Of a DNA stretch of 64,000 nt, positions 240-47,801 are shown in pieces. Origin of the DNA: a virus. A model generated the notes under the pieces. It was not told the DNA's origin. It saw only the letters and a list, made by a program, of their open reading frames with translations, and searched no databases. Numbering within the stretch: the stretch's first letter is position 1; each line of letters starts with the position of its first letter. The stretch spans positions 48,340-112,339 of the IMG/VR virus record IMGVR_UViG_3300022555_000024; one strand, written 5' to 3'. A program made the translations under genes and the position numbers.

Positions 240-476
240 ATGGCAATAGTAGAAAAGACATCTTATGAGGTAACAGTAAGGATCCCGAACACCAATAGCG
301 AGAAAGGTGTAGAAGTTTTGCCTAATTCTTTAGGCATTGTTTCTGGAAATTTATCTGAATATAAGTGGGAAACTTATTTAGTAGTTGGAAGCAGTATTGT
401 CAAAATACTTAAGCATTTTGGCGAAGACAACATAGAAAATATTTCTGTTAGAGGAAAAGGAATCTATATTTCATAA
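240..476 (+). CDS. hypothetical protein
   Basis: ORF with GAGG RBS; leader cgaggaaaaacaatggcaata is repeated before the next gene. Confidence 0.6.
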   Translation: MAIVEKTSYEVTVRIPNTNSEKGVEVLPNSLGIVSGNLSEYKWETYLVVGSSIVKILKHFGEDNIENISVRGKGIYIS

Positions 477-502
477 ATAAATAATTAAACCGAGGAAAAA
501 CA

Positions 503-691
503 ATGGCAATAACAATTGAACAAGTAGAATCGAGACTAAAGGAAATTCAAAATGAGGTTGCAAAAGAGAATCAGACGATCAACAATTTGTCTACAGAGTT
601 TCAACAGTTGCTGGGCTATAAGCAAGCATTGATAGATAATTCAACCGTAGCAGAAGAAAACTCATCTGATAAAACTCTTTTAACTGAGTAA
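503..691 (+). CDS. small coiled-coil hypothetical protein
   Basis: ORF with the same RBS leader as 240..476. Confidence 0.6.
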   Translation: MAITIEQVESRLKEIQNEVAKENQTINNLSTEFQQLLGYKQALIDNSTVAEENSSDKTLLTE

Positions 692-705
692 CTAGTTGTA
701 ATAAT

Positions 706-1071
706 GGGGGTGACGGGATTTTGCCAGTCAAATAGTTAAATAGGAGTGCAGTTCGAGTTTCAGCATGGATGGACTCGTTAAAGAAGTCTATGTAAACAAT
801 AAATGCAGACACTTTCGAGTATCGCATGGCTGCTTGATCTTAACAGACAAACACCAAATTTGATAACTATATAGACGCTGAGTAGTTATCATCTAAAAAT
901 ATTAGCAGTCGTCTTTGGTCCGAAGTTTCATCTCACCAATGTACTAAATTTGAAACTAGGTATATCTCTTCCTGTTTGTGGGAAGTCAATTACCGAACAA
1001 TAACACAAACATGACTGTAACACTTTTATTTTTCGTTTGGTTGTACGAGGGTTCGACTCCCTCCACTTCCA
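706..1071 (+). ncRNA. ssrA: tmRNA; tag peptide (A)ADTFEYRMAA encoded at 805-837
   Basis: 5' GGGGGTG pairs with 3' CACTTCC-A (G3:U wobble); T-arm GAGGG-TTCGACT-CCCTC; internal frame GCA GAC ACT TTC GAG TAT CGC ATG GCT GCT TGA ending in AA; 366 nt. Confidence 0.9.
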
Positions 1072-1077
1072 CAAAAT

Positions 1078-1222
1078 GGGGTAACACAGGTTAGAAATAA
1101 TTAGCGAAAAACAGAACTGGTTATAACTCTACAATGATCGCAACATTGGAGGACTTGATGAACAGAGAATGTTCTTTAGTAATACCGTGATTATTTATTG
1201 GGTTCGAACCCCATTTACTCCA
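1078..1222 (+). ncRNA. mini tmRNA-like / tRNA-Ala-like structured RNA
   Basis: GGGGTAA/TTACTCC-A acceptor stem with G3:U; T-arm TGGG-TTCGAAC-CCCA; helix 1095-1106/1185-1196; no D stem or anticodon arm. Confidence 0.7.
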
Positions 1223-1267
1223 CAAATTAATATATAACATCCTTCCTAATAATACAAATACTACACA

Positions 1268-2383
1268 ATGGCAAAAGCAGAAGTAACAAAAAATAGCAAA
1301 GCATATGATATCCTAAAAAGAATGAAGAAGACGTCTTCTGTTGAAGAATCGTCAGTTTTTTCAGATTCTGATCTTTATATGATAAAGGAATCCATCCCAA
1401 CTCCTATCCCAGTAATAAATTTAGCACTATCTGGTAAATTTTTTGAAGGAGGAATAACACGAGGTTTAACTGTATTTGCGGGACTGTCAAAAACCTTTAA
1501 GACTAACATTTGCCTTCTTTGTTTAAAGGCATATATGGACGCACATGAAGACGCGATAGGAATGCTTTATGATTCAGAGTTCTCATTTACCCCAGAGTAT
1601 TTAGCTTCATTTGGGATAGATATTAACAGAATATTCATAACACCTATAGTTGATATAGACAAACTTAAGAACGATATTATAAGTCAGGTAGATTCCATTA
1701 ATAATGGAGAACACATCTTCATTTTAATAGATAGTATTGGAAATTTGGCATCTCTTAAAGAAGTATCTGATGCACAGGATGGAAAATCAACTCAAGATAT
1801 GTCCCGCGCAAAAATGTTAAAAAGCTTTTTTAGAATGATAACGCCAAGAGTAAATCTGAAAAATATTCCACTTTTTGTTGTTAATCACATTTATATGACT
1901 CAGGAAATCTATAGCAAAGCAGTAATAAGTGGTGGAACAGGAGTACTCCTATCTGCAAATTCTGCACTCATCATGTCTCGTCGTAAGAATGATAATAAGG
2001 AAGAAGCTGGGTTCGATTTTATGATTAAAGCAGAGAAATCTAGATTTATAAAAGAAGGAATTAAATTTCCAATTACAATACCTGAAGGTGGACAGATTAA
2101 GAAATATTCAGGCCTGTTTGATCTTGCATTAGAGACTGGCTTTTTAATGAAAGAAGGAATGATGTATGCTGTCCCTGAATTACCAGAATTTAAAAAGGCA
2201 TGGAAAAAAGATATAGAGGATTCTGAAGAATTCTGGACAAATATTTTTGAGAATACTACATTTGTTAAAACTATAGAGGAAGGACTTAAAGTATCTGTAG
2301 ATCAATCAGAATTATTTAAAATAGGTGCTAATGTTAGTGATATCTCCAATACAGTTGAAGATTTCAAAGAGTTTGAAGAATAA
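1268..2383 (+). CDS. uvsX: RecA-like recombinase UvsX
   Basis: INLALSG, AGLSKTFKT P-loop variant, YDSEF, IDSIGNLAS, VVNHIY, SGGTG motifs. Confidence 0.93.
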   Translation: MAKAEVTKNSKAYDILKRMKKTSSVEESSVFSDSDLYMIKESIPTPIPVINLALSGKFFEGGITRGLTVFAGLSKTFKTNICLLCLKAYMDAHEDAIGMLYDSEFSFTPEYLASFGIDINRIFITPIVDIDKLKNDIISQVDSINNGEHIFILIDSIGNLASLKEVSDAQDGKSTQDMSRAKMLKSFFRMITPRVNLKNIPLFVVNHIYMTQEIYSKAVISGGTGVLLSANSALIMSRRKNDNKEEAGFDFMIKAEKSRFIKEGIKFPITIPEGGQIKKYSGLFDLALETGFLMKEGMMYAVPELPEFKKAWKKDIEDSEEFWTNIFENTTFVKTIEEGLKVSVDQSELFKIGANVSDISNTVEDFKEFEE

Positions 2384-2443
2384 AATGTGAAAATTGTTGT
2401 TATATATTATTTTATACTATCAAATAAAGGATTAAACAAAAAA

Positions 2444-3847
2444 ATGAATCGAATTGAAATAATTATACTTTCCGGATTAATTACACAAGCAGAATTTTCT
2501 AGAAAAGTTCTCCCATTTATAAAAACAGAATATTTTGCTTCTTTGGAGGAACGTTATCTCTTTGACACAATACACAAATATATAACAACATATGGACAAT
2601 TACCATCTATTTCAGCTTTATCGATAGAGATAGAAAATATCGTAGATATTAATGAAAGTGCTTTCAAATCGTTGAAAGAACTTCTTATTACAGTCGGGGA
2701 TTCTACTGTAGATAATAAAGAGTTAGAATGGCTGTTAATAAATACAGAGAAATTTTGTCAGGATAAAGCACTCTATAATGCAATTATGGAGTCTATAGAG
2801 ATCATGAATGCAGACAAAAATTCTACAACACACAAAAACCTTTCTAAAACTTCCATTCCATCAGTTCTCACAAAGGCTCTAGCTGTTACTTTTGATAGTA
2901 AGGTAGGTCATGATTACATAGGTGATTCTGATTCTAGATATGAACATTATCATGAGAAAGATGAGAAGATCCCATTTGACATAGAACTACTCAATACCAT
3001 AACTAATGGTGGACTTCCAAAGAAAGCACTTTCTATTATTCTTGGTGGAACTGGAACTGGAAAGTCTATGGTAATGTGTCATTTTGCTGCTAACAATCTA
3101 ATGGATGGTAATAACGTTCTCTATATAACTTTAGAAATGTCTGAGTTAGAGACAGCAAAAAGAATAGATGCAAATGTCTTTGACGTTGACATTAAAGATA
3201 TATCTTCTATGTCTAAAACTGAATATCATAATCATGTAGATGATATAAAAAGAAAAACTATGGGTAGACTTATTATTAAGGAATACCCAACTGCATCAGC
3301 ACATGCCGGTCATTTTAGATTTCTCTTAGATGAATTGAAATTAAAAGAGAAGTTTATACCAGATATTATCTATATAGATTATATAAACATATGTCTAAGT
3401 ATGAGAATGAAAATGGATGGAAATTCTTATTCATACATAAAATCTATAGCAGAAGAAATAAGAGGAATGGCAGTAGAATTCAATGTACCAATAGTTTCTG
3501 CTACTCAAACTAATAGAAATGCGCAAAATTCATCTGATGTAGATCTTACCAACGTTTCAGAATCGACAGGCCTCTCTTCAACGTGTGATCTTATGCTCGC
3601 AATCATATCTTCAGAGCAATTGTCAGAACTTGGACAGCTTCAGTTCAAACAACTTAAAAATAGATATAATGATGTTAATTCACCAACAAGGTTTTTAGTT
3701 GGTGTCAACAAATCAAAGATGAAACTTTTTGATTTAGAAACAAGTGTTCAAAACACTATCATTCAATCAGGGCAAAGTCAAGTAACAAAACCAGCTGGAG
3801 GATTTTTTGGTACATCTAAAAACAAATTTTCTTCTATAAACGTCTAA
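2444..3847 (+). CDS. 41: replicative DNA helicase (T4 gp41-like)
   Basis: GGTGTGKS Walker A, LYITLEM, IIKEYPT, IDYINI, SATQTNR, KQLKNRY; ATG 2444 preferred over upstream GTG. Confidence 0.93.
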   Translation: MNRIEIIILSGLITQAEFSRKVLPFIKTEYFASLEERYLFDTIHKYITTYGQLPSISALSIEIENIVDINESAFKSLKELLITVGDSTVDNKELEWLLINTEKFCQDKALYNAIMESIEIMNADKNSTTHKNLSKTSIPSVLTKALAVTFDSKVGHDYIGDSDSRYEHYHEKDEKIPFDIELLNTITNGGLPKKALSIILGGTGTGKSMVMCHFAANNLMDGNNVLYITLEMSELETAKRIDANVFDVDIKDISSMSKTEYHNHVDDIKRKTMGRLIIKEYPTASAHAGHFRFLLDELKLKEKFIPDIIYIDYINICLSMRMKMDGNSYSYIKSIAEEIRGMAVEFNVPIVSATQTNRNAQNSSDVDLTNVSESTGLSSTCDLMLAIISSEQLSELGQLQFKQLKNRYNDVNSPTRFLVGVNKSKMKLFDLETSVQNTIIQSGQSQVTKPAGGFFGTSKNKFSSINV

Positions 3848-3910
3848 TTGGTATAAATATTTTTTTAATTTTGGGAAAAAGATTATATTTAATAAGTAAT
3901 AAAATAAGCA

Positions 3911-4186
3911 ATGCTAAGTACAAAACATTTCGAATATCAAAAAAATCCTCCAACTCTTTTCGCTTATAAATCAGATTTGAGCAACGTAGATAAAGGATTT
4001 ATAACATCTGTTAATAAGAATTTTGAAAAAGGATTATTAATCCAAAGTCACGTTACGGGAAAAAAGATGCACTTCTTACTTCATGAATTTGAATTTGAAG
4101 AAGGTACTAATAAAATTCAATCGTGGATTCTTAATTCTAGGTCAAAAGATAATAAGCTTATAACAATAATTATATACAACAAATGA
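3911..4186 (+). CDS. hypothetical protein, probable paralogue of 35550..35798
   Basis: Shared pattern F-x-Y...TL-x-A-x-x-S-[DE]-L...I-x-S-x-x-T...I-[YF]-N. Confidence 0.6.
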   Translation: MLSTKHFEYQKNPPTLFAYKSDLSNVDKGFITSVNKNFEKGLLIQSHVTGKKMHFLLHEFEFEEGTNKIQSWILNSRSKDNKLITIIIYNK

Positions 4187-4461
4187 CAAATAAACAAAAG
4201 GAAGCAGTAGAACATCCTGCACATTATGCCGAGGGTAGATCGTATGAACCAATTGATGTTATTAGAGATTGGGATCTCAATTTTAACCTTGGAAGTTCTT
4301 TAAAATATATTGCTCGTATGGGAAGAAAAGATGATGCAGTTCAGGATTTAAAAAAAGCTGTATATTATATTCAACATGAAATAAAATCAATAGAAAAAAT
4401 AAAAAATGAAACAAGTGAAACGAAAAAAATTACAAGCTCCACACAGCAGGAAACTTACTGA
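4183..4461 (+). CDS. DUF3310-family protein
   Basis: VEHPAHY...EPIDVI...FNLGSSLKYIARMGRK...QDLKKAVYY. Confidence 0.85.
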   Translation: MTNKQKEAVEHPAHYAEGRSYEPIDVIRDWDLNFNLGSSLKYIARMGRKDDAVQDLKKAVYYIQHEIKSIEKIKNETSETKKITSSTQQETY

Positions 4462-4834
4462 CCCTGATCATTACCCACAAGTAGATTCTCCATTTTTATT
4501 AGATAGAATACCAGAGAAGAAGACAAAGTATATACCAATTCCAGCAGATCAAAGAAAATTTGTTAATTATAAGCATCCCGGTAATAATGAAAATTCTAAA
4601 AAACCTGTTTACGAAGATGTAGATAAATTTTTTGAATGTCCTCATTGTGGTAGTACTATAGACAATTATACTTGGAGATGTTATATGTGTAGATATGAAG
4701 CTTCAGTTTATAATGAACCAATAGATGGAGTTATTGATTATAGACATTGGACAAACATCGAAGAAACGAAGGAATTGAGAAAAAATTTAATTCGTGTTAA
4801 TCCTTGGACTGGAGAAAAGTGGAATGGAAAATAA
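4406..4834 (+). CDS. hypothetical zinc-ribbon protein
   Basis: CPHC...CYMC pairs. Confidence 0.6.
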   Translation: MKQVKRKKLQAPHSRKLTDPDHYPQVDSPFLLDRIPEKKTKYIPIPADQRKFVNYKHPGNNENSKKPVYEDVDKFFECPHCGSTIDNYTWRCYMCRYEASVYNEPIDGVIDYRHWTNIEETKELRKNLIRVNPWTGEKWNGK

Positions 4835-9431: not shown

Positions 9432-10322
9432 ATGAAAACGTATAAACATTTATTAGAAGAAATATCAATGTTTGAAAATAATGGTGAAGGTGGTGGAACT
9501 TGGAAAGATGGTATTTGGAGAGGTGGCACTTGGTTAGGCGGCACCTGGAAATACGGAATTTGGAAAGATGGAATTTGGAAAGACGGAATTTGGAAAGACG
9601 GAATTTGGAAAGATGGAACATGGAAACGCGGAGTATGGAGTGGCGGTACTTGGAAAGATGGAACTTGGATTAGTGGCACTTGGAAAGGCGGAAATTGGTG
9701 GGACGGTACTTGGAAAGGTGGCATCTGGGAAAATGGTACTTGGAATAAAGGAACTTGGATTAGTGGCACTTGGAAAGGTGGAACATGGTTTGACGGTATC
9801 TGGAACGGCGGAACATGGGAAAAGGGTATTTGGAAAGGTGGAACATTGGAACGCGGTGATTGGTGGGACGGTACTTGGCAAGGTGGTACTTGGAAAGATG
9901 GCACTTGGAAAGGCGGAACCTGGCAATACGGGCTTTGGCGAAATGGCAAATGGAATGGTGGCAAATGGAATGGTGGAACCTGGGAAGGCGGAACCTGGGA
10001 AGGCGGTACCTGGGAAGGCGGAACCTGGGAAAAGGGTATTTGGAAAGGTGGAACATGGGAACGCGGTGATTGGTGGGACGGTACTTGGCAAGGTGGCACT
10101 TGGAAAGGCGGCATCTGGAAAGGTGGAACATGGGAACGCGGTGATTGGTGGGACGGTATCTGGAAAGGCGGCACTTGGGAACGCGGCATCTGGAAAGGAG
10201 GTGATTGGTGGGACGGTACTTGGGAAGGCGGAGATTGGTGGGGTGGTTATGATAAATACGGCCGTTATCATGCAGCAGGCGATTCACCGGATAAATGGAA
10301 ACTAAAAAACAAACTAAAATGA
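9432..10322 (+). CDS. GxWxx-repeat family protein 2 (CTS + about 50 repeats, no WCT domain)
   Basis: MKTYKHLLEE start, nearly pure GxWxx repeat, same GDSPDKWKLK cap. Confidence 0.88.
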   Translation: MKTYKHLLEEISMFENNGEGGGTWKDGIWRGGTWLGGTWKYGIWKDGIWKDGIWKDGIWKDGTWKRGVWSGGTWKDGTWISGTWKGGNWWDGTWKGGIWENGTWNKGTWISGTWKGGTWFDGIWNGGTWEKGIWKGGTLERGDWWDGTWQGGTWKDGTWKGGTWQYGLWRNGKWNGGKWNGGTWEGGTWEGGTWEGGTWEKGIWKGGTWERGDWWDGTWQGGTWKGGIWKGGTWERGDWWDGIWKGGTWERGIWKGGDWWDGTWEGGDWWGGYDKYGRYHAAGDSPDKWKLKNKLK

Positions 10323-17728: not shown

Positions 17729-17791
17729 TTTCTTGTGGCGTAATTGGTTAACGCTTTTGTAAATATGCAGGTTCGAATCCTGCCAAGAAAA
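17729..17791 (+). ncRNA. tRNA-like RNA lacking a normal anticodon arm
   Basis: Acceptor TTTCTTG/CAAGAAA, D arm GCGT-AATTGGTTA-ACGC, T arm GCAGG-TTCGAAT-CCTGC; only 12 nt between D and T arms. Confidence 0.7.
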
Positions 17792-47635: not shown

Positions 47636-47682
47636 AAACTAAAACGTAGTAACTATAATCAATCATTACTACGTTTTAGTTT
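47636..47682. terminator. 17-bp inverted repeat between NAMPT-like gene and tRNA-like RNA
   Basis: AAACTAAAACGTAGTAA ... TTACTACGTTTTAGTTT. Confidence 0.65.
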
Positions 47683-47684
47683 GT

Positions 47685-47801
47685 GTGAGTGTAGCATAAT
47701 GGTTATGCCTCTCTTGCCCAGGGAGCTTCAACGGTTGAAGGTAGCTAACAGCTATTAAATGGTTCGACTCCAGAATTGAGGTTCGATTCCTCTCACTCAT
47801 A
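47685..47801 (+). ncRNA. tRNA-like RNA with three extra hairpins in the variable region
   Basis: GTGAGTG/CACTCAT-A acceptor, GCAT/ATGC D stem, CTCTC-TTGCCCA-GGGAG arm, GAGG-TTCGATT-CCTC T arm. Confidence 0.7.

Follow-up and report, generated by a model that had tools for sequence, protein, structure and literature searches.

Interference of bacteriophages with ribosome rescue has barely been explored. The literature holds one phage RNA reduced to the tRNA-like domain (TLD) of tmRNA, that of mycobacteriophage DS6A (PMC4131195, PMC11915505), and a DS6A-like molecule is reported to be a strong inhibitor of tmRNA, an effect that may come from titration of SmpB (PMC4131195, which cites Mao et al. 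2009; PMC11915505). tmRNA itself is carried by just ~2% of sequenced phages (PMC9004378). There is also a class of unexplained long tRNA-like stable RNAs, known since the species 1 RNA of T4, which the 145-nt RNA analysed in this work would join.

The DNA under study (the window, 64,000 nucleotides) comprises bases 48340-112339 of a 112-kb IMG/VR virus record with a CheckV completeness of 62%. It belongs to an uncultured, T4-like phage, whose UvsX is at most 48% identical to that of the nearest cultured phages. The left end of the window is a T4-type replication module with every gene on the plus strand. Its elements, together with the parts of the 145-nt RNA, are as follows.

Left end, 5' of the tmRNA, plus strand: C-terminus of DNA polymerase (PHROG 262).
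Between DNA polymerase and tmRNA, plus strand: two small ORFs.
706..1071, plus strand: phage tmRNA (ARAGORN; Rfam RF00023 at 104.8 bits, gathering score 47).
1072..1077, plus strand: 6-nt spacer CAAAAT between the tmRNA and the 145-nt RNA (sequence).
1078..1084, plus strand: 5' strand of the acceptor stem, GGGGUAA, giving G1-C72, G2-C71 and G3:U70 (sequence).
1085..1094, plus strand: stemless D-loop-like segment CACAGGUUAG, 10 nt, with GG at RNA positions 12-13 (length and GG register of the RF00023 consensus).
1095..1103, plus strand: 5' strand of the closing (P2-like) helix, AAAUAAUUA (9 contiguous pairs with 1188-1196).
1104..1187, plus strand: interior, 84 nt, AU-rich, of ambiguous fold (constrained folds, translation, local alignment).
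1132..1148, plus strand: anticodon-arm mimic, 5-bp stem CAAUG/CAUUG with the 7-nt loop AUCGCAA (sequence).
1160..1174, plus strand: second interior hairpin, GAACA-GAGAA-UGUUC (folding; weak).
1188..1196, plus strand: 3' strand of the closing helix, UGAUUAUUU, holding the UGA that ends frame 1104-1190.
1197..1197, plus strand: linker of a single nucleotide, A1197, from the closing helix to the T stem (as in the RF00023 consensus structure line).
1198..1214, plus strand: T arm, stem UUGGG/CCCAU and loop UUCGAAC (sequence, motif enrichment, tRNA-Ala HMM).
1215..1222, plus strand: 3' strand of the acceptor stem, UUACUCC, and discriminator A73 (A1222) (sequence).
1223..1226, plus strand: 3' trailer CAAA, in which C74 is encoded and C75 and A76 are not (sequence).
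1268..2383, plus strand: next gene, uvsX/RecA-like recombinase (PF00154 on homologues; annotated UvsX in phage relatives).
After uvsX, plus strand: DnaB-like helicase gene.

The phage tmRNA encodes the tag ADTFEYRMAA*; the 3' strand of its acceptor stem lies at 1064-1070, its discriminator is A1071 and its CCA is not encoded. We looked for promoters and terminators between the tmRNA, the 145-nt RNA and uvsX and found none, and we rejected the idea that the 145-nt RNA has a promoter or terminator of its own. A small protein gene was likewise rejected at this place, as there is no start context and no plus-strand ORF of at least 50 aa. No smpB was found in the 112-kb record; integrase was not found either, so that no ORF, integrase or smpB gene complicates the locus.

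The original prediction had placed a second RNA, carrying a 7-bp acceptor stem with alanine identity elements, a canonical T-loop and a stemless D-loop-like segment, 6 nt behind the tmRNA, and its description of these parts proved correct. The tmRNA ends at A1071 and the gene occupies 1078-1222 of the plus strand, starting with G1078. Its acceptor stem (1078-1084, GGGGTAA, with 1215-1221, TTACTCC) forms all seven of its base pairs and includes G1080:T1219 as G3:U70, and A1222 stands as A73. The partner at 1078 is the sole one within 500 nt upstream; in shuffled sequences such a partner appeared with a probability of 0.038 anywhere in the 126-nt spacer and of 0.0036 within 10 nt of the tmRNA end. 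The T stem (1198-1202/1210-1214), made of four Watson-Crick pairs and an outer U:U, abuts the acceptor and carries the loop TTCGAAC at 1203-1209. The motif GGTTCRANNCC occurs 6 times in the 64-kb window, against 0.32 expected, each time inside a tRNA-like element. The D-loop-like segment has the form GGUNAG, which is also present in the IMG/VR mini-tmRNAs L244, L294, L299 and L300.

The long helix drawn in the original prediction at 1095-1106/1185-1196 was slightly generous at 12 bp: nine contiguous pairs (1095-1103/1188-1196) stand, and C1105-G1187 and G1106-C1186 can extend them only with G1104 bulged. Shuffling of the interior produced such a closing helix with a probability of 0.00015 in the fixed register and 0.0026 over 30 registers. 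The whole set of elements, that is a 7-bp acceptor, a 10-nt loop with G12 and G13, a helix, a 1-nt linker and a T arm, follows the consensus geometry of RF00023, and the TLD layout proposed at the outset is thereby borne out. Because the geometry fits this consensus and the closing helix is rare in shuffled sequences, we consider the outer architecture to be real. The acceptor stem, the T arm and the closing helix are each improbable by chance, and it is this non-randomness, together with the anatomy itself, that was directly observed. The folding z-score of the whole molecule is just -1.8.

Family models gave a different picture. The Infernal and ARAGORN searches suggested as a check turned out negative. 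RF00023 and RF00005 returned no match at E<=10 on 1060-1240 or 1076-1700, and RF00023 and the mitochondrial tmRNA model RF02544, run over the whole record, did not detect the 145-nt RNA. ARAGORN in default and intron modes gave nothing credible on it, and lowered thresholds led just to misregistered calls with wrong acceptor stems. The intron-mode result rules out an ordinary intron-containing tRNA, in agreement with the original proposal. The RNA lacks the GAC/GGAC motif that is conserved where helix P2 of tmRNA has its base. In local alignment its interior is no more similar to tmRNA than shuffled sequences are (z about 0), by which an internally deleted copy of the adjoining tmRNA is ruled out. 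We do not assign the 145-nt RNA to RF00023, and its kinship with tmRNA stays putative.

It had also been claimed that the interior leaves no room for pseudoknots and encodes no AA-ending tag in spite of an open frame, and we came to the same result. No pseudoknot ring PK1-PK4 was seen in the 84-nt interior, the folds of which are two weak hairpins; minimum free energy folding cannot predict pseudoknots, and four of them would not fit in 84 nt anyway. The sole open frame in the RNA, 1104-1190, reads AKNRTGYNSTMIATLEDLMNRECSLVIP and ends ...SLVIP, so that there is no frame for an AA-ending tag, an ending found in 21 of the 26 phage tmRNA tags printed by ARAGORN. Both hairpins proposed before, 1132-1148 and 1160-1174, are present and weak, their extended forms reaching -3.0 kcal/mol (1127-1151) and -5.5 kcal/mol (1153-1181).

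Predicted nearest-neighbour energies leave the fold of the interior unsettled. The model with the closing helix has -25.8 kcal/mol; forcing the anticodon hairpin and leaving out the closing helix gives -28.3 kcal/mol; a fold constrained by the acceptor and the T arm alone reaches -30.4 kcal/mol, 4.6 better than the closing-helix model, and omits the closing helix. The closing helix and the anticodon hairpin are mutually compatible.

One feature of the interior had been missed earlier: the hairpin 1132-1148 has the form of an Ala(CGC) anticodon arm.

The search for relatives of the 145-nt RNA covered several collections. A blastn comparison of 600-1400 with GenBank phages gave no match. Four pattern scans of IMG/VR, for the 145-nt RNA or the tmRNA tag, led just to the contig of the locus L002, matched by its tag, and in one metagenome scan the single match was a chance one to two adjacent ordinary tRNAs. 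UvsX served as an anchor for gathering further loci, 64 in IMG/VR and 1 in GTDB genomes, and a covariance model of the 145-nt RNA was applied to 100 loci and 49 whole phage records, where it detected no homologue whose interior matched. As the pattern, blastn and covariance-model searches yielded no homologue, neither covariation nor selection is in evidence, and in consequence the function of the RNA is unproven.

The window contains five tRNA-type genes: the tmRNA, the 145-nt RNA, a tRNA-Asp, a 63-nt element (17729-17791) and a 117-nt element (47685-47801). All five encode C74 and none encodes C75 and A76. In four of them the discriminator A is followed by CAA (the tmRNA at 1071, the 145-nt RNA, the 63-nt element at 17791 and the 117-nt element at 47801), and the tRNA-Asp has the trailer G|CUAA. 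The shared trailer speaks for a place of the 145-nt RNA among the working tRNA-type genes of the phage. The combination of G1-C72, G2-C71, G3:U70 and A73 is found only in the tmRNA and the 145-nt RNA. In two loci of other phages (L191, L282) the tmRNA is followed, after a spacer of 6-7 nt, by a tRNA-like RNA of 124 nt that was not called, the CAAAAAU trailers being the same; in L232 a tmRNA is followed after 3 nt by a normal tRNA-Ala(UGC), and in L306 after 4 nt by a tRNA-Gly. Short spacers behind phage tmRNAs are common and a tandem spacing of 6 nt is normal for tmRNA/tRNA clusters. Since such spacers recur in other phages, the tandem position reflects tRNA-cluster organisation and, if T4 is taken as a guide, the cutting of multimeric precursors by RNase P.

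We tentatively favour, with a probability of roughly 40%, that the 145-nt RNA is a processed, alanine-chargeable tRNA-like RNA made together with the tmRNA and acting in or against ribosome rescue; in other words, that this is the gene of a stable RNA with TLD topology, a long and divergent 'mini-tmRNA-like' RNA. From its anatomy we infer how it might be processed and charged, which proteins could be its partners and what biological role it may have. It would be transcribed on the same plus-strand precursor as the tmRNA. A cut by RNase P 5' of G1078 would also free the 3' trailer of the tmRNA; the 3' trailer of the 145-nt RNA would then be trimmed and its end completed by the host CCA-adding enzyme. 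G3:U70 and A73 in an acceptor/T minihelix are sufficient for alanylation, and AlaRS would be expected to charge the RNA. Because it has neither a conserved tag frame nor a pseudoknot ring, it would most likely act at the entry step of ribosome rescue, where it could compete with or supplement the full tmRNA for AlaRS, EF-Tu and perhaps SmpB. Such competition would resemble what is proposed for the TLD-only RNA of DS6A (PMC4131195, PMC11915505). That a single phage should encode a functioning tmRNA together with its competitor would be odd, and this speaks against the favoured reading. Also against it are the lack of homologues, which is the weak point of the case, the absence of the RNA from the relatives L002 and L003, the missing Rfam match and GAC/GGAC motif, the folding z-score, the more stable fold that omits the closing helix, and the outer U:U pair of the T stem. 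If the favoured reading is true, a full tmRNA and, from the same precursor, a second alanine-type RNA with a different body would suggest that phages divide the functions of rescue between two RNAs, and the molecule would be a natural minimal scaffold for the requirements of AlaRS, EF-Tu and SmpB.

The alternative that survives best, though we find it unlikely, is that of a tRNA-Ala(CGC) from the phage tRNA set, remodelled by expansion of its D and variable regions, which may still decode GCG or serve another tRNA-dependent role; its tmRNA-like look would then be a by-product of tRNA-Ala ancestry. It draws on the hairpin 1132-1148, a perfect anticodon arm whose loop AUCGCAA provides U33, the anticodon CGC (Ala, codon GCG) and A37. 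Hairpins of this Ala type appeared in 0.275% of interior shuffles (a chance of about 0.003), and hairpins with any anticodon in 6.9%. The hairpin points to tRNA-Ala ancestry at least as much as to tmRNA ancestry. On its correct side, at 1115-1123, lies AACUGGUUA, identical to the D-loop of the phage's tRNA-Asp. After removal of 1085-1112 and 1155-1197 in silico, ARAGORN calls tRNA-Ala(cgc), and no such call for Ala came from 60 shuffled interiors; this variant was, however, the only one of 2646 deletion variants to be called, and it has a D stem of 2 bp. An HMM built from 45 phage tRNA-Ala genes scores 12.1 bits and is limited to 1199-1223, the T arm and the 3' acceptor strand. Taking the anticodon hairpin, the ARAGORN variant and the HMM together, we see in the body of the RNA a trace of tRNA-Ala and not a cloverleaf.

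The genomic surroundings suit a remodelled tRNA-Ala as well, since the normal tRNA-Ala of L232 lies directly 3' of a phage tmRNA, the 63-nt and 117-nt elements of the window are themselves truncated or expanded tRNA-like genes, and expanded tRNAs exist elsewhere, e.g. in L228. Against it, a D stem is lacking, neither the tRNA covariance model nor ARAGORN in default mode found a match, the anticodon hairpin, placed beyond a 9-bp helix, has a distance to the acceptor end that does not suit decoding, and GCG is the rarest Ala codon of the phage (10.8%). The favoured reading and the remodelled tRNA-Ala overlap in that both describe an alanine-accepting tRNA-like RNA, and this common part we regard as rather probable.

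Unlikely too, and less well placed again, is a decaying relic, a copy of tRNA-Ala or tmRNA that insertions or duplications have damaged in a hot spot of recombination, perhaps still transcribed and functionless. The 145-nt RNA is missing from both of the closest relatives compared. In the closest of them, L002 (UvsX identity 72%), the tmRNA and its tag are the same as here (RF00023, 91.2 bits); a 305-aa homing-endonuclease-like ORF takes the place of the 145-nt RNA between tmRNA and uvsX, and a second such ORF lies upstream of the tmRNA. In L003 (UvsX 70%) there is neither the tmRNA nor the 145-nt RNA, and an unrelated 66-aa ORF occupies the gp43-uvsX spacer, which is therefore plastic. The missing Rfam match, the weak folding z-score, the ambiguous AU-rich interior, the U:U pair in the T stem and an internal near-repeat (ACAGGUUAGAA at 1086, ACUGGUUAUAA at 1116) would also be expected of a relic. 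What a relic explains poorly is the intact acceptor with 7/7 pairs, the canonical T loop, the GG in register, the 9-bp closing helix and the trailer of working genes. In addition, because 117 contigs are on record with the identical UvsX protein (counted by UvsX alone), we are dealing with an established lineage and not with an assembly oddity. Further relatives have UvsX identities of 65-79%. Even as a relic, the RNA would still document interconversion of tRNA-Ala-like and tmRNA-like shapes in a recombination hot spot.

Improbable, in our opinion, is a functional hybrid in which an alanine-charged head of tmRNA type bears a closing helix carrying a tRNA-Ala anticodon arm, so that the phage would have two rescue RNAs. 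If this were true, the tmRNA would tag products for destruction and the 145-nt RNA would rescue ribosomes without a degron, or else it would append the peptide of frame 1104-1190 or 1140-1190, which is not a degron; the phage could in this manner protect truncated products of its own or adjust proteolysis in the host.

It is very improbable that the element is a cis-acting processing module, a tRNA-shaped punctuation that releases the 3' end of the tmRNA and sets the 5' end of uvsX mRNA, in which case the RNA cut out would have no role: a place between tmRNA and uvsX, all on the same strand and with neither promoter nor terminator found there, would suit it, the acceptor/T minihelix is the recognition unit of RNase P, and the multimeric T4 tRNA-cluster precursors are processed by RNase P likewise, but punctuation needs neither an alanine identity set nor an 84-nt interior, and the same tmRNA matures in L002 without the 145-nt RNA. 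An antisense partner of the tmRNA or of the uvsX leader is ruled out by duplex z-scores of -0.45 and +0.96, and an attP-type 3' fragment of a host tRNA or tmRNA by the lack of an integrase and the presence of a perfect 5' partner.

Returning to the favoured TLD-type RNA, we compared it with four known kinds of molecules. With the standard one-piece tmRNA (SsrA, RF00023; the phage copy at 706-1071) it has in common the TLD geometry and the alanine identity set. The phage tmRNA and the 145-nt RNA further share a non-encoded CCA, the CAAA trailer and the strand, and they are probably located on one precursor. Unlike a standard tmRNA, the 145-nt RNA has no pseudoknots and no AA-ending tag and is undetected by RF00023. 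It resembles tRNA-Ala in the acceptor identity elements, the T arm and the CGC anticodon-like stem-loop, and differs from it in the lack of a D arm and in the displacement of the anticodon hairpin behind a 9-bp helix.

T4 species 1 RNA (rnaC, 139 nt; AF158101 70908-71046) is the classical analogue. Like the 145-nt RNA, it is a tRNA-like molecule, of a size typical for stable RNAs, at the edge of a T4-type tRNA cluster; its T arm is canonical and abuts an acceptor-like stem of 7 bp, and its body is long and unlike that of a tRNA. When the model of the 145-nt RNA was run on T4 (8 kb), its best match was rnaC, a partial one (16.7 bits, E 0.007), covering only the helix-plus-T-arm module: an AU-rich 9-bp helix, GCG, 2 nt and the T arm. 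In rnaC, however, the acceptor has two U:U mismatches and no G3:U70, and the helix adjoining the T arm forms just a simple hairpin, whereas that of the 145-nt RNA closes the whole body. We know of no function of rnaC.

The DS6A-type mini-tmRNAs are phage-encoded as well, and show G3:U70 and A73, a stemless D-loop with GG and a closing helix beside the T arm, with no pseudoknot ring and no usable AA-ending tag. For calibration we used phage minis from two pattern scans of IMG/VR, comprising forms of 77-87 nt (L250, L219, L244, L251, L294) and of 97-116 nt with perfect acceptor stems (L292, L296, L299, L300). RF00023 scores six of these minis at 39-69 bits (L250 at 68.9) and does not score the 145-nt RNA, which is therefore much further from the tmRNA consensus than they are. 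When nine other phage minis served as seeds of a model, its match had precisely the ends 1078 and 1222 (17.8 bits, E 0.18), a test that is partly circular because its seeds came from patterns derived from the 145-nt RNA. A covariance model from the 145-nt RNA alone places the TLD-only L250 on top (28.9 bits, E 0.0035) and tRNA-Ala genes lower. These two custom models lend modest support to a putative architecture common to the 145-nt RNA and the minis.

The 145-nt RNA also differs from the DS6A type. There the TLD is closed by a short hairpin in a molecule of about 65-90 nt (77-116 nt among the IMG/VR minis), with a GAC/AAC-type motif at the helix base and a 3-nt linker; here the RNA measures 145 nt and has instead an 84-nt interior, no such motif and a 1-nt linker, and, unlike the minis, it contains an Ala anticodon-like hairpin and adjoins a complete tmRNA. 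What is new in comparison with the known minis is its length, how far it diverges from the family model, the Ala anticodon arm embedded in it and its place beside a complete tmRNA.

Inside the 145-nt alanine-type tRNA-like RNA (window 1078-1222, + strand), a D-loop-like motif is nearly repeated at a spacing of 30 nt, as ACAGGUUAGAA (window 1086-1096) and ACUGGUUAUAA (1116-1126), which may reflect an earlier duplication of part of this element. The second copy (1116-1126) and the D-loop of the phage's tRNA-Asp have AACUGGUUA in common.

Two other tRNA-like genes of unusual build were found in the window, both scored with the Rfam tRNA model RF00005:

17729-17791, + strand, tRNA-like gene of 63 nt, 49.8 bits
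47685-47801, + strand, tRNA-like gene of 117 nt, 33.1 bits

Acceptor, D and T arms are all normal in both of them. In the shorter gene, which was not called by ARAGORN, just 12 nt occupy the place of the anticodon arm and variable loop, and it therefore has no anticodon; its trailer, A-CAAAA, is the same as that behind the 145-nt element. The longer gene carries a 63-nt insert with four hairpins: one is anticodon-like and presents GCC (Gly), one (UGG-UUCGACU-CCA) resembles a T arm and would be the gene's second, and two are of other kinds. A perfect 17-bp hairpin lies immediately upstream of the gene, at ~47638-47683.

The spacer between the DNA polymerase gene (gp43) and uvsX, which houses the tmRNA and the element, is an insertion hot spot. 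In the closest retrievable relative (L002), the same tmRNA has homing-endonuclease-like ORFs on both sides, at 447-1436 (-) and 2084-3001 (+), and these flanking ORFs match PHROG GIY-YIG/HNH families. In L003, a relative with neither RNA, the uvsX match at 2977-4620 stretches over 1569 nt and is broken into two ORFs (89 and 418 aa), and this split suggests that the gene is interrupted by an insertion (an intron, intein or endonuclease gene).

Among phage tmRNAs called by ARAGORN in the comparison loci L172-L306, about 12 encode tags that are unusually long, at 20-28 aa, such as GKNTHIFNHYPMVEVSQNQYAIAA. AA is the ending of 21 out of 26 tags printed by the program.

Tandem arrangements and other unusual RNA forms were also noticed in other phages. 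In a separate lineage, represented by L191 (~1651-1774, -) and L282 (~9453-9576, +), a tmRNA with the tag EAEQELELAA is followed, after a 6-7-nt spacer, by an uncalled 124-nt tRNA-like RNA with a canonical T arm and a perfect 7-bp acceptor (UGACUAG/CUGGUCA) which is not of the alanine type; CAAAAAU stands directly 3' of both RNAs. In an unrelated IMG/VR phage (L300), partial matches to the Rfam tmRNA model RF00023 lie side by side at 4110-4228 (44.6 bits) and 4229-4312 (22.9 bits), with a tRNA next in line; the two are predicted to be mini-tmRNA-like RNAs in tandem. In a complete 161-kb T4-like relative (record G021, locus L073), two segments (1501-1595 and 1712-1765) look like a permuted two-piece tmRNA, in which the acceptor 3' piece would lie upstream of the 5' piece. 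A 58-nt alanine-type RNA of record G013 (L082, 1761-1818), which lacks a D arm but has a T arm and an anticodon arm with UGC, is a further non-canonical form of phage tRNA-Ala.
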